Below are positions 10,568-63,910 of a stretch of 64,000 nt of DNA, one piece after another. Location of the stretch: contig NC_057748.1 of assembly GCF_004010195.1 (NCBI RefSeq), forward strand, positions 4,509,237 through 4,573,236, read 5' to 3'. The position numbers and the translations under genes are program-made. Below the pieces are notes generated by a model, which saw nothing but the letters and a program-made list of their open reading frames with translations, did not search any database and was not told the DNA's origin. Origin of the DNA: Chiloscyllium plagiosum. Taxonomy: Eukaryota. Each line of letters opens with the position of its first letter. Positions within the stretch are counted from its first letter, which is position 1.

Positions 10568-12519
10568 ATTATTATAGAAGGATTGCAAGGTATTGAGCCA
10601 CAGACACCCAGCAGAGGGACATTGATCCCGGTCTCCTGGTCCACCAAGTCGGGGTGGGAAGGAACAGCTGGGGACAGGATTTTAGGGTTGTTTGGAAATA
10701 GCATGGGAGAATCGAAACTGCCACAGAAATAATTGTAGACTCACACCGACCCTCACACACCCGCACACACGCACAGACAGACACACACACACACATCCAC
10801 CCCCCTCACATACTTCCACTCTCTACCAATCACGCTCACATTCACTGTCATTAACACAGACACTCTCTCATGGTCAGTTCCCCACATGGTCTATCCCTTT
10901 AAGTAACTGACAGACACAAATTATTACAACAAATAAACTTATTCTGTATTGCTTTGTACAATTATAAACTGGAAGAGGACAGACCACACAAACAGTGGGT
11001 TGGGGTCGGATGTGGTTGGCATCAGGCACTTCTGGTTGTATTGATGGTTGGTGGGTGTGAAGCGACATCTCTCGCCTTCCGAATCGATTTCCGCCAAGAA
11101 AATATCAGAATCAGAAAGTACAAAAATTAAATCATTCTTACATTCAATCACATGGGCCATTGGCCTGTGTCACATGGCGGTGGATTTTGGGGAAATGAGC
11201 ATGCTCATTACAGTTGGGGCAATGACCCTTGGCAATGTCTCTTGGTCTCTTCAATCCTTTCTGTGATGCACTCAATCAGATATAGTCCCTAAAACCCTAA
11301 CAGCTCGCTGCAGTGTGAAGGAAGGTTGCCATGGAGATTTTCAATGTGGATCCTGAGCGTGTGGGATCTTTCTGCCCTCACCCAAGCCGAGGGGGATCCC
11401 AGGGTAACAGACCTTTCATTTCCCACGGCCTGCTGCAGGTGGACTCCAGACCGATCCAGTACCAACGCAGTGCCAGTGCTGTGCAGTCCAGTGCAGTGCC
11501 AGTGTGGTTCCTGTGCAGTGCAGTGGAGTCCAATCCAGTGCCACTTAACAGCCTGAGCTGTATTAGGTGCCAGTGAGGGCACAATACAGAGATAGTTGGG
11601 GGGCACGGGGACAGGAGATTGAGGGGACAGTGGATAGACAGTGAGAGGACAGGGAGTGGGGTGACAATGAGGGGCCGGTGAGGGCTGGTTTGGAAATGTA
11701 AAACCAACTTTTGTGAATCTTTCTCACAATGCATCCAAGGTTTTGGGAATGACCTCCCTGAGCCCCTTCCCCACACTGGAGGAGGCCATTCCCACTGGAG
11801 CTGCATGCCCACTCTCTCCAGAGCCTGTCAGTTCGTCCCAATGTGCCCACTCTATCCTTGCACGCTGCAGGTTTAATTTCTCTCAAGTACCCATTCCGTT
11901 TCCTTTTTTTGAAATCTTCATTGCCCCCACTTCCACCTCACCTGTACTTAGTGAGTTCCTGATCATTACTCACTGGACAATAAAGTTCTTCCTTACTGTT
12001 ACAATGTATCTCATGCCCAAAACCTCCGATCTTTGTGGGGCTGATTCACGTTAAAGTTACTGACACTTATCTTTGTTACCAAAACATATATCAGCCGCAG
12101 CACCACTGAAATCCCCACGATGTATGAAACAGTCTCACTTTTTAATATGAAGGGGCTGCTCAGGATGGTGGCCTTCCCTAAACCCTCTTCCTTCATCACG
12201 ATCTTCAGACTTTCCAACATCCACCTCCAACCTCAGGCCTACCCTGTCTACCCTCCTGGTCATTTGAGGGAACTGCTGCCTGACTGTGGGTGAGGGAGCC
12301 TACTTTGGGGGTGCACGTTTGCCTGGAGCCTCTGCTATACACAGCTAGGCTGTTCACAGATTCTGTGGTCCTAGTAAAGTGACATAAAGTGCTATTGTGA
12401 ACATCAATAAGCTGCTTCCCCTGTGAGGATACAGCTGGAACCACTCCAGCACAAACTCTTTCTCAACAAAACATTGGAACATGCCAAATAGAAATGTAGA
12501 TATCTACAGAATGCATGGG

Positions 12520-13920
12520 CACAGAGACAGAGGGGTCACAGAGAGACAGAGGAGGACACAGAGAGACAGAGAGGGACACAGAGAGACAGGGCGATACACG
12601 CGGAAACAATGGGATATACAGCGATTGTGGAACACATAGAGGGATTGTAAGATACACAGACACTTTGGGAATCTCAGGGAGATCATGAGGGGCACAGGGG
12701 CAGGAGGGTGAAGGGACAGTGGAGAGACAGTGAGGGGTAATAGTAGGATACACAGGGAGACAGTGTGAAACACAGGGAGATAATGGGATTCACAGGGCGA
12801 TAGTGGGATGCACAGAAAGACAGTGGGATGACAGAGAGACAGTGGGATACACAGATACACATGAGATGCGCAGAGAGACAATGGGATACAGAGAGAGACA
12901 GTGGGGTTCACAGGGAGATAGTGGGATTTGCAGAGAAATAGTGAGATGCACAGAGAGACAGTGGGATGCGCGATGAGGCAGTGGGACACACAGAGACAGT
13001 GAGGTACACAGGGAGATAGTGAAATGCACAGAGATACAGTAAGATACAGAGATACAGTGGGATACACAGAGATACAGTGGGATGCACGATGAGGCAGTGG
13101 GACACACAGAGACAGTGAGGTACACAGGGAGATGGTGGGATGCACAGAGATACAATAAGATACAGAGATACAGTGGGATACACAGAGAAAGGGGGATACA
13201 CAGAGAGACAGTTGGGTGCACAGAGAGTCAGTGGGATACACAGACACAGTGGGATACACAGAGAGACAGTGGGATACAGAGACGGGGGATGCTCAGAGAG
13301 TTGGATGCACAGAGACAGTGGGATACACAGAGAATCAGTGGGATGCAGGTACACAGAGGCATAGTGGGATACATAGGCACAGTGGGATACACAGAGACAG
13401 GGGGATACACAGACACAGTGGGATACACAGAGAGACATTGGGATATACAGAGACAGTGGGATACACAGAGACAGGGGGATGCACAGAGAGTCAGTTGGAT
13501 GCACAGAGAGTCAGTGGGATACAGAGACGGGGGATGCACAGAGATAGTGGGATATACCGAGACAGTGGGATACACAGATATACAGTGGGATACTCAGAAC
13601 AGTGGGATATACAAAGACAGTGGGATACACAGAGATACAGTGGGATACTCAGAACAGTGGGATATACAAAGACAGTGGGATACACAGAGATACAGTGGGA
13701 TACTCAGAACAGTGGGATATACAAAGACAGTGGGATACACAGAGAGTCAGTGGGATACAGAGACAGTGGGATACACAGAGACAGTGGAATATACAGAGAC
13801 AGTGGGATACACAGGGATACAGTGGGATACACAGAGACAGTGGAATATACAGAGACAGTGGGATACACAGAGATACAGCGGGATACACAGAGACAGTGGA
13901 ATACCGAGGGAGATAGATAC
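12520..13920. repeat. Minisatellite, ~16-20-bp unit (cacagagacagtgggata)n
   Basis: Dozens of tandem degenerate copies; these account for the low-complexity ORFs. Confidence 0.95.
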
Positions 13921-14175
13921 CCAGGGATGCAAGGTGGATTCTCAACTTCGAAAAAGAGGCACTTCAACATGGAGGTACACACAGTGATATGGATCAATGA
14001 TGCACGAGTGATTACAAAAGATTCTTGGTCCATTGGTGAGACTGGATTCATTTCAGCCACAGCCTTTGAGGTACCCCAGAGTGAGGGGTGTAGAATAAAG
14101 GCAATTATACAGTTCGAGGCATATCCCATCACAGCACCATAGCAACACGGCAGCAAGGAAGGGTGTTGTGACTAA

Positions 14176-18069: not shown

Positions 18070-18075
18070 TTTAAT
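18070..18075 (-). terminator. ATTAAA polyadenylation signal of ferritin A
   Basis: ~80 nt past the stop; conserved in A, B, D, E, F and G and absent in pseudogene C. Confidence 0.65.
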
Positions 18076-18154: not shown

Positions 18155-21337
<3,183 letters not shown>

Positions 21338-21389
21338 CTTTACTATTCCTGCTCACTATCACCAGATAACTCCAAGCCTCCCTCAAGCT

Positions 21390-21625
21390 CTTGTATTTAC
21401 CCTGCTGGGACACCCTGCACTTAACCAGGGAGAGGTAGCAACAATGATGATTGACAATCTCTAACAGCCAATCAGGAATCACCCATGAATGTACACCCCA
21501 ATGAGAGAGAGGGGGTGGGTGTGTGAACCAGAGCTGATCAGAGGTGTAGATTAGAGTCAGGTCTGGATGATTATTCTGTGATTGGAACAGCAGGAGGTCA
21601 CTCAGCAGCATCTCAATCAGGTCAC
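21390..21625 (-). promoter_or_regulatory. Proximal promoter of ferritin A (TATA-like, CCAAT boxes, ARE-like motif)
   Basis: TAAATA at 21394-21399, cagCCAATcagg at 21468-21472, TGCTGAGTGAC at 21597-21607; all conserved upstream of C, D, E and F. Confidence 0.65.
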
Positions 21626-26025: not shown

Positions 26026-27151
26026 TTAAACAGTTGTGGAATTTCCAGTTATGAGAGTTGCTCGCTCAAAATCTCTCCCCACAGAATAAAACACTGAGCA
26101 GGTTACTGGGACAAGAATTGAAACAAGGTTGAAAGAAAAGGATTTAATAATCAGATATTGAACAGCTAAAACCCAAGAACCAAATGAAACTAAATAGTTA
26201 TACAGTTCCATGGTGAACATTATTTTAATTTTGTGCAGAGCACAACCAAAGTCATCCACTAGAATGAAGTCACCATGTCCAACATATGGAGTTGTTGAGA
26301 GCCTGTCAAACAGGTACTCTCCCAGGCCATTCTCAGGGGCTCCCAGTCTCTTCAGGTTGGTGTTGTGATCTCCCAGCTTCTTGATCATCTTCACTTGCTC
26401 ATCCAAGTAGTGCCTCTCCAGGAAGTCACCCAGCTGGAAGAGGAGACAAAGATTAGCCTCAAGGAACAAACCATGCACTTGAATGTGACATCCCGGGCGG
26501 CACGGTGGGCGGCATTGTGGGCGGCACGGTGGCACAGTGGTTAGCACTGCTGCCTCGCAGCGCTAGAGACCCGGGTTCAATTCCCGACTCAGGCGACTGA
26601 CTGTGTGGAGTTTGCACGTTCTCCCCGTGTCTGCGTGGGTTTCCTCCGGGTGCTCCGGTTTCCTCCCACAGTCCAAAGATGTGCAGGGTCAGGTGAATTG
26701 GCCATACTAAATTGCCCGTAGTGTTAGGTAATGGGTAAATATAAGGGAATGCGTGGGTTTCGCTTCGGCGGGTCGGTGTGGACTTGTTGGGCCGAAGGGC
26801 CTGTTTCCACACTGTAATGTAATCTAATCTAATCTAATCTAATCCCATTACAGACATGACCATCACCACCATATTATGGTGTGGGAAAGGTACAATCGGG
26901 GGTGCCTGTTGAAATGTTTATGCTTTCAGCCTGCAGGAGGCAGGTAGATAATTGGATTATACCCCCAGAGAGTACACAAACAGATCATTTCCTTCCAGGT
27001 TTGAGAGAAAAAGCTAGAAACTCACATGAGGGTCCGTGTGGCCAGAGGAGAGTTTGTGCAGATCCAGCAGACTCTGGTTCACATCCTTCTCCATCTGCAG
27101 AGCTCTCTGCATTGCCTCCAGACCATTGCCCCACTCATCCTGCTCTGGCTT
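26026..27151 (-). pseudogene. Ferritin copy B, truncated pseudogene (exons 3-4 only, stop codon lost)
   Basis: Exon 3 is 27151-27026 and exon 4 starts at 26433. A ~19-bp deletion near 26298 removes the TGA, so the frame reads through to 26026. C>G (LGDF) and I>N changes. Exons 1-2 and the promoter are absent. Confidence 0.9.
26495..26845 (+). mobile_element. Young HE1-type SINE in intron 3 of B
   Basis: Full body, triplicated 5' gggcggcacggt, (aatct)n tail. Confidence 0.9.
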
Positions 27152-31970: not shown

Positions 31971-33984
31971 CTTAATTATCCTTGTCAAGGTGGTGATATT
32001 TGCCTTCTTGGGAGGTAGACCCACAATCCTGTTTGGGAGGAATCCAGAATTTTGACTCAGCAACAGGGGAAGAACAGTGATATATGCCCAAGTCAAAATG
32101 GTGAGTGGCTTAAAGAGGAACTTGCAAGGGGTAGAGTTTTCATGTATTTTTGCCCTTGTCCTTTTAGATGGGAGTGGTCATGGGTTTGGAACATGTTGTC
32201 TGAGGAGCTTTGGTGAATTCATACGACATTTGGTAGATGGTACACCTTGCAGTTGCTAAATGTCAGTGGGGGAAGGAATGAATGTTGGTAGCTATTGTGC
32301 CAATCAAATGGGCTGCTTTGAACTGGAGGGTGTTAAGTTCCTTGAATGTTGTTGGCACCCTCCCCATTATCCTGACTTGAACACCCCCTGCCCAAGCCAA
32401 TTCCCCACCAACATCTCTCCCCCGTGATCATGTCAATGACATCATTAAGGTGGCAGCTTTGGCTTTTCACAAACTGACGCTGAGAATGTCCATCCTCCAA
32501 ATTAAAGGGTCTGCACAAATCAAGATGCATGCTGGGAAACACCACCTCTGAACTAATGTATATAACCAAATCCATAATAGCCTTATCACAGGGAGCATCA
32601 GTTCCAACATCAATATTCAGAGCCTGGTCAAGTCTGCAAAATGGACCAACTCAGTTTGCACACTGGGGAAGATTGGAAAAGAACATTTAGCCTAGCAATG
32701 CGTGCAAATTTAAAGCATGTGCAGTTTCAATCCCAATAGTATTGGGGAGATGTAAACTACCAAAGCTTACATTTGTATGAGACTTCTATAGAAGAACACT
32801 TACATGGGACATATTGTCTTTTCCCACCAAAGACAAGCACCTAAGCCATTTATTTCCATTCAAACAGAGAAAGATGAATAGTGCAGACTTAAGATAGCTG
32901 TGCAGTCATTAACCAAGTTACTTTGTGCCCCACTTATTCTATTGTGGGCTGTGAGCATCCCAAGCAAGCTCAGTCCTCATCACCCATTAGATTTCCCTTG
33001 AACTGCAATGCCACAGTGTCTGCACTATATTATTAAAATAAACCTGATTTCATGTAAAATTAAAAAGAAAAAAATTTGGAACAGATTCTTGTAAATGCTA
33101 CTCTGGTCCTATAGCTTTGTTTGCATCAGCTGCCCTCAGTACATGAAGCCTCTGGATTGCTCTAGTAAAAAAGGGAATTGCTACAATTGTCCCACATAGG
33201 TTAAGGTAGGTACTTTTGCATTTCCTCATGCAGATCATTGTTATTAGCCAAGCAGACTAGAGATACTGATGCCAGTCAAAAGCAGACTCTTTATTCTCCA
33301 GCATGGAATGTGGATGAGAGAAACCATTTCCCCACATTGGGAAAACAATCACATAGCATTCAAGTACCCCTTACTGTTCTTGGCTAAGTGATAATTGTAA
33401 AACTATCCACTAAATCAGAATCTAAACATTAAAATAAATTGCTAGAAAACATTCAGGTCTGACAATATTGATTGTACAAAAGTAAATATTTCCAGGCCAG
33501 TGACTGTTCTTAACCAATTTCACTCCACAGATGCTGCCAAACCCAAGTTTTTCTTCCTGATTTCCAGCAGCCAGTGTTTTTTGCTTCAATTTTAAAAACA
33601 TCTAAGCATTAGTCAGAGAGTACACCAGTTGTGTGTCAAGCATTCAGATTTCAAACTATTGATTAGAGGCTGTTGCTGCAAATTTGTTCCAGTAAGTACT
33701 GCTTACAAGCCAAAAAGCTAAGCAGTTGTGGAATTTCCAATTAGGAGTGTGGCTCACTTACACCAAAAGTCACTCCACACAGCAGAATAAAAACACTGAG
33801 CAAATTACTGGGACAAAAAGGTTGAGAGAAAAGGATTTAATGATCAGATGTTAAACATCAAAAACCCAAGCAGCAAATGAAGCTAAGAAATCACAGAGTA
33901 CTCAGTTCCATGGTGAACACTTCATGTTGTGCAGAGCACAACATGAAGTCACCATGTCCAACAAATGGAGTTGTTGAATCCTGC

Positions 33985-36495
33985 TCAGCGTGAGCCTGTC
34001 AAACAGGTACTCTCCCAGGCCATTCTCAGGGGCTCCGTCTCTTCAGGTTGGTGATGTGATCTCCCAGCTTCTTGATCATCTTCACTTGCTCATCCAAGTA
34101 GTGCCTCTCCAGGAAGTCACACAGATGGAAGAGGAGACAAAGATTAGCCTCAAGGAACAAACAATGCAACTGAAAGTGATGTCTATTACAGATGTGACAA
34201 TCTCCACCACCTTGTGGAGGGGGAGGGGTGCACTCTGGGATGTCTTTTGAAAGGCTGATGGTTTTCAGCCTGGAGGAGGCAGGTAGATGGTAATTGGAAT
34301 CTCCCCCCAGAGAGTACACAAACAGATCATTTCCTACCAAATGTTTAAGAGAAAAAATGAGAAACTCACATGAGGGTCCATGTGGCCAGAGGAGAGTTTG
34401 TGCAGATCCAGCAGACTCTGGTTCACATCCTTCTCCATCTGCAGAGCTCCCTGCATTGCCTCCAGACCATTGCCCCACTCATCCTGCTCTGGCTTCTGGA
34501 GGGAGGGAAGTCAGGAGAGAAAAACCAGCTCATCTCAGACAGGTGAATCACAGGCTACATCTGGTCAGTTCATTATTCCGAATCTTTGTAGGAGTTAGAT
34601 TTCAGGCCAATTGTTTTACTGACTCCTTTAGATTTCACCATTCCCAGAGCTTAAGAAATTTTAGAAGCATACCATACTGTGAAAGCACATGTTTAAAAGA
34701 TACTATAATCCAAATGTATCTAAAAATATGCACCAGTGGTGATAATTCCTTGCTGTACTGTTCTATCCCTTTGGATCCTCTTGACCAGCCCATTAGAAAC
34801 ATCTTGGAGATGCTACTACCTTCCACCCCTGTGGATTCTCTCATTCTTACCACAGTAGAGGGGCATTGGAATTGACATCTCTGAGGTTATATAGTTGATC
34901 ATTCTTACATGCAAATGATTCTCTCCATCCAGTATTCTGGATCATCCCAATTGCCTGTTGCTGTTTCACAAGTGCAAAATAGTCTCCAATTCAATGCATT
35001 GCTCACCAATACAATCTCCAATTCATATAGCATTTATTCAGTCTTGAGGCTCAACAGATTGGAGTGATACCAGTTAATTTGAGTTCACAAAACACATCTT
35101 CAGTTTACAGAAGCCAACCTTGACATCCTGCAGGAGGACCCTGCCTCCACATTTATTCTGGAATTCATCAGTTTCTCTGTGTTCCCATTCTTCATGGGAC
35201 TGCTCCCTAAAAGAACTCAGCAAAGTGACACAGGGCAACATCATCCCGGTCAAAGTAAGAGGAGGACTGAAAGTGGAGATAAAGTTGGAAGAAAACATTA
35301 CTTTCATCCTTGGCACACAGTGACCCATCCCACCATTTCAATTCCCTTCCAATTAACTGAAGTTAGTGACAAAAGCAGAAAGTCATCTGTCAATTGTGGT
35401 CTAAATAGCAGTCATTTTGACCTCCCAGAATGAAGATCTAAAAACCAACTGCAACCCCTGACTTGTATCTGAAGGAGGCAGTGTGCTAGTGTGGCAGAGT
35501 GTACTGTGAAGGTCCCTGTTGGGGACAACCATTAGACATCCCTGCACTGCAGGTTAGAAATGTTCTTGCTCAGTGCTGGTAGTTAGTGAGATCATTGACC
35601 AACTGAAACATAGGACACGAACATGTTGACCAACAGGCAGAAATCTCAGTCAGTACCTCATTGCCAACCTCACCCACCTGAGTAACCACACTGTCCTACT
35701 ATTTGGTCTGCACAGAGTCTTGACTATGCTATTTTTAGATAATTCACATTTCAAGTGAAAAAAAATGCCATTTAACCATCTTTCCTCACATTTAGCAAAT
35801 AAACACTTCATCTTCAACAAGTGAAGACAACAGCTTGTTTATTTAGGCAACTTTTAAAATCAATTTGGTTTGGAGAAAGTTTTTTTGAGAAAGATTAGTT
35901 ATAGAATCAGTCAGGGATGTATAGCACAGAAACAAACCCTTCAGTCCAACTCATCTATACTATCCAGATATCCCAACCCAATCTAGTCCCTGGCCCATAT
36001 CCCTCCAAACCCTTCCTACACAGATACCCATCCAGATGGATTTTAAATGTTGCCATTATACTAGCCTCCACTTCCTCTGATAGCTCATTCCATAAACATT
36101 ACTATCCTGAGGGGAAAGTTGCCCCTTAGGTCCCATATCTTTCCCCTCTCACCCTAAACCTATGTCTGTTCATTCTGGGCTTCCATACCAGAGGGAAAAG
36201 GCTTTGTCAATTTATCCTATCTATGCCCCTCATGGTTTATAAGCCTCTGGAGGTCACCCCTCAGCCTCCAACACTCGAGGGAAAACAGCCCCAGCCTGTT
36301 CAGCCTTTCCCAATAGCTCAAATCCTCCAATCCTGGCAACATCCTTGGAAGTCTATAAATATAAAATAGAACCTTCAAGACCACAAACCTCACCATGGAG
36401 AGGTAAACATAGGAAGAATAAAGCTCCATGTTGATCTGCTTGTTAACAACATCCTCACAGTCCTTGTGGTAGTTCTGACACACTTGGGAGGCCAT
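33985..36495 (-). pseudogene. Ferritin copy C, four-exon pseudogene
   Basis: Exons 36495-36394, 35266-35119, 34495-34370 and 34124-~33985. Several frameshifting indels in exon 2, exon-4 acceptor AG>AT (34125-34126), small deletions in exon 4, polyA signal lost. Confidence 0.9.
35900..36352 (-). mobile_element. CR1 3' fragment in intron 1 of C (same site as in F)
   Basis: [27 protein letters not shown] peptide plus the CR1 tail. Confidence 0.85.
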
Positions 36496-40641: not shown

Positions 40642-42925
<2,284 letters not shown>

Positions 42926-43150
42926 CTTCACTATTCCTGCTCACTATCACCCAGACAACTCCAGACCTGAACCGCTCTCCCATGAGCTCTTGTATTTATC
43001 CCCCAGGGAACATCCAGGGATAGGTATCACCAATGATGATTGACAATTCCTGACAGCCAATCAGGAATCCCCCGTGAACATAGGCCCCAATGAGAGAGTG
43101 GGGATGTGTTAACTAGAGCTGATTAGAGGTGTAGATTAGAATCAGGTCTG

Positions 43151-47715: not shown

Positions 47716-49747
<2,032 letters not shown>

Positions 49748-51859
49748 CTTCACTATTCCTGCTCACTATCACCCAGACAACTCCAGACCTGAACCTCTCA
49801 CCCATAAGTTCTTGTATTTATCTCCCAGGGAACATCCAGGGAGAGGTATCACCAATGATGATTGACAATTCCTGACAGCCAATCAGGCATCCCCCATGAA
49901 CATAGGCCCCAATGAGAGAGAGGGGATGTGTTAACCAGAACTGACCAGAGGTGTAGATTAGAGTCAGGTCTGGATGATTATTCTGTGATCGGAACAGTAG
50001 GAGGTCACTCAGCAGCATCTCAATCAGGTCACTGTGAGTTTGTGTCCTTTTGAAAGAAATAGGTTTGAATTAGGAAAGGTTTTCAAGTTTTCTTTTAAAA
50101 TAAAGTTTGTTGTGACAACTGAAAGAGGGGCTCAATGAAGAAGGGGAGTCACCATCTCAGCCTTTTGTGCTGGAAATGGGAGATAGGCGCTAGGACAAGG
50201 CAATTGTAACAGGAGCAGATGGGGCAGAGACTGGAACGCTGTTCTCAATGATGGGGAGTCCAGAATCCGGGGGGTCACAGTCTTGTGACACGGGGTAAAC
50301 TGTTTAGGACTGAGATGAGGAGAAAGGTCTTCACTCAGAGAGTGGGGAGGCTGTGGGATTCTTTGCCTCAGAAAACATTGAGACTAAAACATTGAATGTT
50401 TTTAAGAAGGAGTCAGGTACAGCTCTTAGGGCTAAAGGGATCAAAGTTTATGGGGATGGAGTGGGAGATGGTACTGAGTTAGATGATCAGCTTCAATCAC
50501 ATGGAATGGTGGAGCAGGGCTGAAGGGCTGAATGGCCGACTCCCATTCCTTTTTTTTTCTCTCATTCTATGTTTCAATAACCTGTTTAGTAAGAGTCTTA
50601 TGGCACAGGGGTGGTGTCCCTTTGTCTGGGCCAGGAGGTCTCTGTACAAGACCCAACCTGCTCCAGAGGTGTCTGATAACATCTCTGGACAGGTTCATAA
50701 GGAAACGACCAGAGCTGTTGCAGGCCCTGTCAGGAGGTGGAAACCTCTTGAGGTATCGCTCTGTGTAACTATTTAGTTTCATTGGGTTCTTGGGTTTTTG
50801 CTGTTTAATATCTGATTATTACATCCTTTTCACTCAACCTTGTTTCAATGCTTGTCCCAGTAATTTGTTCTGTTTTATTCGGCTGTGTAGAGGGATTTTT
50901 GGGACTAAGTGAGCAATTCTCATAATTGGAAATTCCACAACGGCTTAAGCTTTTTTCCTTGTAAGGAATACTCACTAACTGAAGACCCTACCTGCTCCAG
51001 AGGTGTCTGATAACATCTCTGGACAGGTTCATAAGAAACAACCAGAGCTGTTGCAGGCCCAATGGACCGAATGGCCTCCTCCTGTGCCATAACAATTCTG
51101 TGATTCTGTGGATGATCTGCATCTGAACAGCGTTTCCCTGCCTCTGTCTCCTGACTGACCTTTCTGTGGATTGGCACCTCGCTGTGATGGAGAGCCTCGA
51201 GTGTCCCGTTGATTCTGAGAGTGATACCTCAAGAGGTTTCCACCTCCTGGCAGGGCCACCCAGGACGGTAAGGTCGGAGGGGAGGATCCCGATAAAGTGC
51301 AATGCAAAACAAGTCCTCAACGGCCATCCATCCAGGCAGAAGGTATTTGTGTGCTATCTGCAGGGGTGGGTAAAGGCTACAGCAGGAGGAAGATCCCCAG
51401 TCAGCATTTCCTTGCCACTTGAGCTGTACCTACCTTCTGTCAAGGACCGTGTCTGTGCTGTGAGCTGTATTTTTGTGTTTGTGCCTGTGTGCGCGCGCAT
51501 CCACTATCCTTCCTGTGAAGCATCCATTCCTAACGTTATCCCAGAATGTTCAGTTCTAATTTGAAGACTATGATTCCATTCCACATCCTCTGTTCTATTT
51601 GACCAATTGTGAAGAAACAGTTCCCCTGTATCTTCTCTGTCAAATCCATTCATCCTCATTAAAATTTCAATTGCACTCTTTCCTTAACCTTGTACCCTGA
51701 GGATTGTGGGCAAACTGTTGATGTCATTTAACCAGCTCTTTATCTCTGAGTTCATTCTGAAATTCTGGGCTGCACCATCTCTGCCTGAACTGAGCACTCC
51801 AGATGTGGTTGAACCAGAATTTGACAATTTTACAAAGAACCTCCATCCAGAAGGATTCA

Positions 51860-55408: not shown

Positions 55409-58249
<2,841 letters not shown>

Positions 58250-60772
58250 CTTCACTATTCCTGCTCACTATCACCAAAACAACTCCAGACCCATACCTCA
58301 CTCCTGCATGCATTTTATTTTATCCTCCAGGGAGAGGTATAACCAATGATGATTGACAATTCCTGACAGCCAATCAGGAATCACCCATGAACATAGGCCC
58401 CCAAAAAGAGAGAGGGAGTGGGTGTGTGAACCAGAGCTGATCAGAGGTGTAGATTAGAGTCAGGTCTGGATGATTATTCTGTGATTGGAACAGCAGGAGG
58501 TCACTCAGCAGCATCTCAATCAGGTCACGGTGAGTTTGTGTCCTTTTGAAAGAAATAGATTTGGATGAGGAAAGGTTTTCAAGTTTTCTTTTAAAATAAA
58601 GTTTGTTGTGACCAACTGCAACTGGGGCTCAATGAAGAAGGGGAGTCAGTTTCTCAGCCTGTTGTGTTGGAAATGGGAGAGAAAGGTGGGCAGTTTTCAA
58701 TGGTGGGGAGTTCAAAGTCGAGGGGGGGGGATGACAGTGTAGTGACACGGGATAAGCTGTTTAGGACTGAGATGAGGAGAAATGTCTTCACCCAGAGAGT
58801 GGGGAGCCTGTGGAATTCTCTGCCACAGAAAACATTGAGACTAAAACATTGAATGTATTCAAGAAGGAGTTAGGTACCGCTCTTAGGGTGAAAGGGATCA
58901 AAATGTTGGATGGAGAATGGGAAGATGGTACTGAGTTAGATGATCAGCCATAATCATATAGAATGGTGGAAGGGTGTACAGCTGACTCCCATTCCTTTTT
59001 TCTCTAATTTTATGTTTCAATAACCTGGGTAGTAAGGGTCTTGTAACACTGGGGTAGTGTGCCTCTGTCTGGGCCAGGAGGTTTGAGTGCCTGACCCTAC
59101 CTGCTCCAGAGATGTCTGATAACATCTCTGGACAGGTTCATGAGAAAACAACCGGGCTGAATGGCCTCCTCCTGTGCCATAACAATTCTGTGATTCTGTG
59201 GTTGATCTGCATCTGAACAGTGTTTCCCTGCCTATGTCTCCTGACTGACCTTTCTGTGGATTGTCACCTCGCTGTGATGGAGAGCCTCGAGTGTCCCGTT
59301 GATTCTGAGAGCAATACCTCAAGAGGTTTCCACCTCCTGGCAGGGCCACCCAGGATGGTAAGGTCAGAGGGGAGGATCCCAGTAAAGTGCAATGGAAATC
59401 AAATCCTCAACGGCCATCCATCCAGGCAGACGATATTTGTCTGCTAACCACGGGGGTGGGTAAAGGCTACAGCAGGAGGGAGATCACAAATCGACATTTC
59501 CTTGCCACTTGAGCTGGCTCTACCTTCTGTGAAGCACCGTGTCTGTGTTGTGAGCTGTATGTTTGTGTGCTTGTGTGTATGTGTGTGCATTCACTATCCT
59601 TCCTGTGAAGAAGCCATTCCGAACATTATCCTGGATAGTTTAGTTCTAATGTGAAGATTCTAATCCCATTCCACATCCTCAGTTCTAGTTGACCCATTGT
59701 GAAGAAACAGTTCCCCTCTATCTACTCTGTCAAATCCATTTATCACCATAAGCATTTCAATTACGCTCATCCCTTAACTTTGTACCCTGAGGAATGTGAG
59801 CAAACTGTTGATATCATTTAACCAGATCTTTATCTCTGAGTTCATTCAGAAAGTCTAGGTTGCACCATTAATGCCTGAACTGAGCACTCCAGATGTGGTT
59901 GAACCAGAATTTGACACTTTTACAAAGAACCTCCATCCATAGGGATTTGAACCTCTTTCACAGCAGGACTAATATTAAATTAGTTCCTTTATTTTGTGTT
60001 TTTATGTCAGTTCACTGCATTTCGATCCAATTGTCTGAATAATTTCATTTTGATCATTAGTTTTGATGACAAGCAGATGTCACCTTTTATAAAACACTGA
60101 ATTGTCTTTCTTGGTCAGACGTGGATCACTTTCCACTTCCCCTCAGTGTCCTGTATCTGCCAGTCTTGCCCATTCCATTAAACTTTGCAACATTCTGCTC
60201 TCAAGGAAATGTGCCAACTGCTGTCGAGTCATCATTTTATTGATGGCCCTTCATTGATAGCACTTACCAATCTCATGAAACGTTATGGCTCCCAGTGCCT
60301 CTCCTTGGGGAAAATAATCAGATCTTGCTATTTTTAATTCACTCCCTGGCTGAGGGTGCTGTTGGCTAGGCCAGCGTTTATTGCCCATTCTTAATTATCC
60401 TTGTCAAGGTGGTGGTGATTTATTTTTTGAATTGCTGCTGTTGGCCATGGGGTAGAGGTGGACCCACAATCGTGTTAGGTAGGGAATCCAGGATTTTGAC
60501 TCAGCACCAGAGGAAGAACAGCGATATATTTCCCAAGTCAAAAAAGGTGAGTGGCTCAGAGACAAACGTGCAAGGGTGGAGGTGCCATGTATCTTTGCCC
60601 TCTTCCTTCTAGATGGGAGTGGTCATGGGTTTGGAACATGTTGGCAAATTCCTACAGCATTTGGTCACTGGTACACCTTGCAGTTGTTAAGTGTCAGTGG
60701 GTGGAAGGAATGAATGTTGGTGGCTATTGTGCCAATGAAGTGGGGTGCTTTGAACTGGAGGGTGTCAAGATT

Positions 60773-62632: not shown

Positions 62633-63910
<1,278 letters not shown>

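Follow-up and report, generated by a model that had tools for sequence, protein, structure and literature searches.

Four-exon ferritin genes arranged in tandem

The 64,000-nt stretch of Chiloscyllium plagiosum DNA that we analyzed, referred to here as the window (C39:4509237-4573236 of a 3.56-Gb genome), held the leftmost part of an array in which ferritin genes with four exons are repeated in tandem. Seven ferritin units, A to G, were found in the window, all on the minus strand, and five of them (A, D, E, F, and G) were intact four-exon genes of 173 codons (Table 1). The coding exons were 102, 147, 126, and 147 nt long, the three introns had GT-AG ends, and the exon joints were present in RNA contigs. 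Exon 2 of each intact copy matched the Pfam Ferritin family (PF00210) above the cut-off; intronless copies scored at most 137 bits.

The complete array, which we designated type I, extended over ~220 kb (C39:4.527-4.752 Mb) and held 26 first exons, with 19 intact genes, 7 broken genes, and additional partial relics. Type I counts of 28 first exons combine these 26 with 2 dispersed ones, and 20 of the 28 belonged to intact genes. A second array (type II), with 16 first exons and 12 intact genes, was located 6 Mb away at C39:10.58-10.75 Mb. Further ferritin copies, part of which were examined, lay on unplaced contigs. N made up ~7% of the array regions and accounted for 2,404 positions, in four gaps, of the window itself.

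Both arrays switched strand in the middle, at head-to-head inversion points (C39:4679081-4681239 and 10666-10671 kb). The 20 intact type I genes fell into two C-terminal classes, one of 173 aa (12/20, at both array ends) and one of 176 aa (8/20), and the longer class was the source of the RNA contig and the full-length retrocopies described below. The window also contained a minisatellite at 12500-13930 (18- to 20-bp unit, ~60 copies) and two related, near-perfect inverted repeats of ~150 bp, one in intron 1 of copy A (20955-21111; fold of -121 kcal/mol) and the other at 2588-2729. These inverted repeats are likely to be MITE-like, and they were responsible for spurious Rfam miRNA and RRE matches in the window.

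Table 1. Ferritin features of the window (window positions) and the two IREs found elsewhere in the genome
Feature	Position	Strand	Remarks
Copy A predicted poly(A) signal	18070..18075	-	ATTAAA
Copy A exon 4 to stop	18155..18301	-	173-aa protein, 7/7 ferroxidase residues
Copy A exon 3	18529..18654	-	
Copy A exon 2	19239..19385	-	Pfam Ferritin match above cut-off
Copy A exon 1, coding part	21236..21337	-	ATG 21337
Copy A predicted 5' leader	21338..21371	-	~34 nt, no IRE; start from TATA+28 spacing in retrocopies
Copy A TATA-like box	21394..21401	-	GGTAAATA, variant of the array's GATAAATA; first T 21399 = -62
Copy A proximal inverted CCAAT box	21468..21474	-	TGATTGG
Copy A distal CCAAT box	21579..21585	-	
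Copy B relic	26287..27151	-	exons 3 and 4 only; exon 4 end altered
Copy C pseudogene	33980..36495	-	frameshifts in exons 2 and 4; TATA first T 36568
Copy D intact four-exon gene	40642..42925	-	introns match spliced RNA contigs of the family
Copy D core promoter and leader	42926..43000	-	TATA 42993-43000, first T 42998; start ~42970 (TCAG); 45-nt leader without IRE
Copy E intact gene	47716..49827	-	ATG 49747; TATA first T 49820
Copy F intact gene	55409..58329	-	ATG 58249; TATA first T 58322
Copy G exons 2-4, intact	62633..63910	-	exon 1 just outside the window, C39:4574161
IRE of single-copy FTH1-like gene	C16:49756387		
IRE of single-copy ferritin (IRE neighbour)	C39:4852285		280 kb from the window

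Core promoters and a short 5' leader

On the minus strand, the ATG of each of the five first exons in the window was preceded by a TATA-like motif. The preliminary description had placed this motif ~60-75 bp upstream of the ATG in copies A, C, D, E, and F; we measured its first T at -73 in copies C to F and at -62 in copy A, and the position given for copy D (42993-42999) was correct. The hexamer TAAATA occurred on the minus strand at 0.34 per kb. Because the copies were homologous, the agreement among their TATA-like motifs does not constitute independent evidence.

Processed retrocopies served as fossil 5' ends, and 25 were examined. Fifteen were derived from type I genes, six from type II genes, four from the IRE neighbour (two of these were one duplicated insertion), and none from the FTH1-like gene on C16. 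Leader sequence was retained in 6 of the 15 type I retrocopies, three of which started at -45 from the ATG and three of which were shorter (-25, -26, and -31). The three that started at -45 (L050, L049, and L113) began at TCAG, +28 from the first T of the TATA box. In L050, TCAG was immediately preceded by a 23-bp target-site duplication plus one additional G, and this G may be a copied cap. L049 and L113 had no clear target-site duplication, and the local alignment of L049 continued to -50 via a short match in a flanking repeat. All three came from copies with the longer C terminus, not from copy A. In the case of the type II retrocopy L046, a 15-bp duplication was present and the start was near the matching position.

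A 693-nt contig from run X1 had all four exons joined and was collinear with the window to 42953. It covered 28 nt of the leader and had no additional joint. A contig does not reveal where transcription starts, and the 3' end of this one belonged to other array members. From the raw single-cell data (X16, ~2% sampled), 51 reads were recovered; the IRE neighbour was the source of most of them, and they formed no start-site pile. The bases before -45 were purine-rich and did not end in AG, and thus they are not a splice acceptor. Three retrocopies that started at the same base argued for a short leader without an upstream exon, and a family start at -45, with a 45-nt leader in copies C to F, was therefore supported. 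The leader of copy A was 11 nt shorter than that of most copies and lacked the TCAG start of the retrocopies, and its start near 21371 is a prediction only. An earlier estimate of ~30-45 nt for the 5' UTR agreed with both values, 45 nt in copies C to F and the predicted ~34 nt in copy A.

Several further observations concerned the leaders and retrocopies. An ATG at the predicted cap site of copy F (window position 58294) opened a 7-codon in-frame ORF with a stop before the main ATG; this ATG is probably too close to the cap for use. Seven of the 25 retrocopy loci (L041, L042, L046, L049, L115, L138, and L139; two of them one duplicated insertion) had the same dispersed repeat in the flank, and L041, L046, L049, and L115 were at or near the same point of this repeat, which suggests a target-site preference of the mobilising retrotransposon. 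L041 and L042 (on C19 and C35) represented an intact retrocopy of the IRE neighbour, 99.6% identical and with the same flanks twice, whose IRE was lost by 5' truncation; they are possibly a young IRE-less retrogene.

Absence of an IRE from both arrays

Rfam searches of the window gave no match at the gathering score and no IRE family among the 20 matches down to E 10. Rfam also detected no IRE when applied to the type I array in full (C39:4509237-4773236) and to 15 of the 17 10-kb stretches into which the type II array was divided. A pattern scan for a C bulge, a 5-bp stem, and a CAGWGH loop found no cap-proximal IRE in either array over their full lengths, and the window itself had zero matches. 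Nothing was detected by a relaxed scan (one mismatch) of the 3 kb upstream of copies A, C, D, E, and F or by a variant-loop scan of their leaders and first exons.

The same tools detected canonical IREs, with scores of 43.7 and 42 bits, in the two single-copy ferritin genes listed in Table 1. A genome-wide RF00037 search, in which 82 candidates were scored, returned at least two IREs; because this number is a lower bound, we used the local scans. The genome had two aconitase/IRP-like genes, on C2 and C40, and thus the IRP system is likely to be intact. The original proposals, that the array ferritins lack an IRE and that they form an amplified set without one, were borne out by this combination of negative scans and positive controls in two paralogs that retain the element.

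Several pattern matches near the arrays were rejected because of where they lay. The match at C39:4508215 was downstream of copy A, the match at C39:4805276 lay beyond a single gene, 15 kb downstream of it, and the match at window position 11784 was 6 kb downstream of copy A and had no lower stem. The relaxed-scan matches near 4 of the 44 array genes (-352 to -2226) were not conserved among copies and were upstream of the TATA box. Beside the IRE neighbour, three divergent single ferritin genes (C39:4820445-4894113, L078-L085) also had no Rfam IRE; two of them had altered ferroxidase residues, one strongly.

It is conceivable that translation of the array mRNAs is still regulated by iron, via an unseen upstream exon or a noncanonical IRP site. 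The starts of the window copies are predicted, N gaps are present, and IRP1 is able to bind some variant loops. However, the array contained no canonical IRE, and the type I leaders had no variant-loop hairpin. Leaders were C-poor and folded weakly (-0.4 to -10.5 kcal/mol), three retrocopies began at -45, and the bases before -45 do not form a splice acceptor. An upstream noncoding exon was rejected because there was no IRE for it to supply, no acceptor-like sequence before -45, and no corresponding joint in the RNA contigs. A farther start or an IRE-bearing upstream exon, which the preliminary description had named as the check on its claim, was thus looked for with scans, retrocopies, and RNA contigs and was not found. 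We consider continued iron regulation of this kind very unlikely.

CCAAT-rich, CpG-poor promoters

Nearly all array first exons (27 of 28 in type I and 16 of 16 in type II) had a TGATTGG or CCAATCA motif no more than 300 nt from the ATG, whereas it was present in one of five single genes and in neither of the two IRE genes; the frequency in the flanks was ~0.06 per 300 nt. The array promoters had 1.3-1.7 CpG per 300 nt, compared to 18 in single genes. Type I and type II promoters aligned above shuffles (z of 3.7 and 5.9; copy A was weaker, at 2.6). The IRE neighbour shared GATAAATA with the array and had a similarly spaced CTCAG that the IRE followed directly, but the likeness of its promoter to that of the array was weak against shuffles (z of 2.8 and 1.6).

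CCAAT boxes are common in many other promoters too, and therefore the CCAAT-rich promoters are only suggestive as a pointer to the oocyte. NF-Y, a CCAAT-box binder, has been described as central in oogenesis (PMC13274144). Cytoplasmic polyadenylation elements were essentially absent from the array 3' UTRs, which thus gave no support for this type of oocyte control.

Two ferritin types under purifying selection

The ferroxidase center (E24, Y31, E58, E59, H62, E104, and Q138) was complete in 19 of the 20 intact type I genes. We take Y31 to be a ferroxidase residue; the other residues follow a published list (PMC4117605). At positions 54, 57, and 61, the sites of the L-type nucleation carboxylates looked for in teleost M chains, type I had E54, H57, and E61; these residues were the same as in the FTH1-like gene on C16, which does not separate H from M chains. 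All 12 intact type II genes carried E59K and Q138E, as in an L chain; the human L chain has K62 and E141. The first of these substitutions is E62K in human H numbering, and since a Glu62-to-Lys change abolishes ferroxidase activity in FTHL17 (PMC7760355), the ferroxidase center of type II is predicted to be disabled, in the manner of L-type ferritins.

Purifying selection was significant in both arrays and was relaxed in type I. For type I, pairwise dN/dS was ~0.35 (0.35-0.5), with 46 N to 37 S variants (P = 0.0009), and the left-end sub-array gave a P value of 0.007. For type II, dN/dS was ~0.15 (P = 8e-8).

These values bear on the idea that the IRE was lost neutrally, as a by-product of birth and death in genes that make little protein, so that its absence has no regulatory meaning. 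The 7 broken genes among 26, the several partial relics, the type I dN/dS values, and the low depth of the array contigs are what a decaying family might display. However, selection acted on the proteins of both arrays, their promoter elements were kept between the arrays at a dS of 0.6, and such clusters are reported to be conserved in two distant sharks (10.1101/2024.09.09.611499). Neutral loss therefore seemed decidedly improbable.

In a tree of 36 intact proteins of this genome, which had no outgroup and from which 13 broken or incomplete models were left out, types I and II formed a group at 100/96, which the IRE neighbour joined at 96/84. The second array was thus the sister group of the first. 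When glycogen synthase and Bcl-2 family probes were used to examine synteny, none located a gene near the array. IREs have been described in sponge ferritins and in most conservative invertebrate ferritins (PMC8395497), which makes loss of the IRE in the ancestor of the arrays the simpler reading. The ferroxidase center is retained in teleost M chains, which are described as orthologous to mammalian L chains (PMC4117605); thus, the L-like changes of type II are likely to be convergent with those of the tetrapod L chain.

Expression and the likely site of action

Array-type spliced contigs were present in all three contig runs examined. These runs had no tissue label, and the RNA status of three of the four runs was a guess. 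The contigs carried the 3' ends of other array members rather than those of the window copies, and their depth was 27-792 compared to at least 25,000 for the IRE gene, although depth is a poor measure. Because array contigs occurred in several runs, expression may not be confined to the ovary.

Of the processed copies, 21 of 25 came from the arrays, which requires germline transcripts. Two of the three retrocopy searches were seeded with type I, and per gene, the IRE neighbour exceeded the array genes in retrocopies (3 independent insertions from one gene). In the Greenland shark, 155 FTL and 179 FTH1 copies have been reported in clusters shared with the white shark, and the largest FTH1/FTL cluster is described as having ovary-specific expression (10.1101/2024.09.09.611499). 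Vertebrate ovaries are described as rich in ferritin transcripts (PMC1488847). The oocyte is thus a likely site of array expression. Among the functions first suggested for the array, the oocyte role gained indirect support from the ovary expression in another shark, from the retrocopies, and from the CCAAT boxes, and the immune and oxidative-stress roles gained no support here.

A functional but somatic array, which lacks the IRE and is transcriptionally induced as an antioxidant or immune ferritin pool, would resemble fthl27 of the hadal snailfish. This gene is present in 14 tandem copies, reaches high expression in the majority of tissues, and reduces cellular ROS (PMC10746142), and the array contigs in all three unlabeled runs are in keeping with such a pool. 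The ovary-specific expression reported for the shark cluster, the germline transcripts that numerous retrocopies need, and CpG-poor promoters unlike those of the broadly expressed IRE genes argued against it, and we regard a somatic pool as unlikely.

Proposed explanation

The arrays contain intact, spliced ferritin genes with a short leader that lacks an IRE. The probable reading is that their mRNAs escape repression by IRP1 and IRP2 and that transcription and gene dose determine their output, with the oocyte as the probable site. The predicted escape follows from the known mechanism, in which IRP1 and IRP2 repress translation through an IRE in the leader. The amount of ferritin from the arrays would then depend on transcription and copy number and not on cytosolic iron.

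The following course of events would account for the observations. In one ancestor, the part of the leader with the IRE may have been lost, while the TATA/initiator core was retained and CCAAT boxes were acquired. This ancestor would then have split into a ferroxidase-active, H/M-like type (type I) and a ferroxidase-defective, L-like type (type II), both of which were amplified. The two subunits would be likely to co-assemble in the oocyte and to build iron storage before the iron arrives, at a stage when mRNAs with an IRE would remain silent because cytosolic iron is low.

More tentatively, sharks may possess a second full H/L ferritin system for the egg. This fuller proposal, to which we give somewhat less than even weight, combines a single IRE-less ancestor, L-like E62K and Q141E changes that arose independently of the tetrapod L chain, amplification of both subunit genes to dozens of copies with CCAAT-box promoters, and an oocyte heteropolymer that is loaded with iron outside IRP control.

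Comparison with known ferritin systems

Shark ferritin expansion and its ovary expression were already known, as were IRE-less ferritins in mammals (FtMt) and invertebrates. The FTH1/FTL clusters of the Greenland and great white sharks are likewise large tandem sets of H-like and L-like ferritins (10.1101/2024.09.09.611499). The main text of that preprint has no occurrence of IRE, UTR, or translational control, and orthology of its clusters to the arrays described here is inferred. A prior report of an IRE-less array ferritin in a shark or fish was not found in the literature searched, which lay mostly outside subscription journals and comprised the main texts of preprints.

Like type I, the salmon H1, H2, and M1-M3 genes have four exons and E24, E58, E59, H62, E104, and Q138, but all five are described as carrying an IRE (PMC4117605), whereas the shark arrays had none, had a 45-nt leader, and were amplified. 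Mammalian FtMt is also of the ferroxidase type, IRE-less, and IRP independent (PMC13010531). This ferritin is encoded by one retrogene that lacks introns and specifies a mitochondrial leader, whereas the shark arrays were tandem genes with three introns whose proteins had no N-terminal extension and no signal peptide, and thus they were not of the FtMt type. Mammalian FTHL17 is a germ cell ferritin that is multicopy in the mouse and has the same Glu62-to-Lys change as type II (PMC7760355); it is X-linked and spermatogonial, and type I retained the full ferroxidase center.

The yolk or atypical ferritins of Schistosoma, Lymnaea, and sponges are egg ferritins in lineages separate from the shark arrays. 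Snail yolk ferritin is secreted, unlike the shark array proteins, which lacked a signal peptide. An IRE is reported to be absent in Schistosoma. Most of the atypical ferritins of invertebrates are likewise described as lacking one (PMC8395497).

An IRE is regarded as a hallmark of the mRNAs for cytosolic ferritins in vertebrates (PMC11719527, PMC4117605), and damage to the IRE of human L-ferritin leads to unregulated ferritin and cataract (PMC11719527). Here, dozens of intron-containing ferritin genes without an IRE were found beside IRE-bearing paralogs in one genome. The missing IRE offers a regulatory explanation for the reported ovary-specific expansion of shark ferritins, and it points to a way in which iron might be supplied to eggs that are very large and rich in yolk. 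It also cautions against reading the expansion as a somatic trait for longevity or ferroptosis. The leaders of the array genes and of the IRE genes form a natural pair for testing IRP control.
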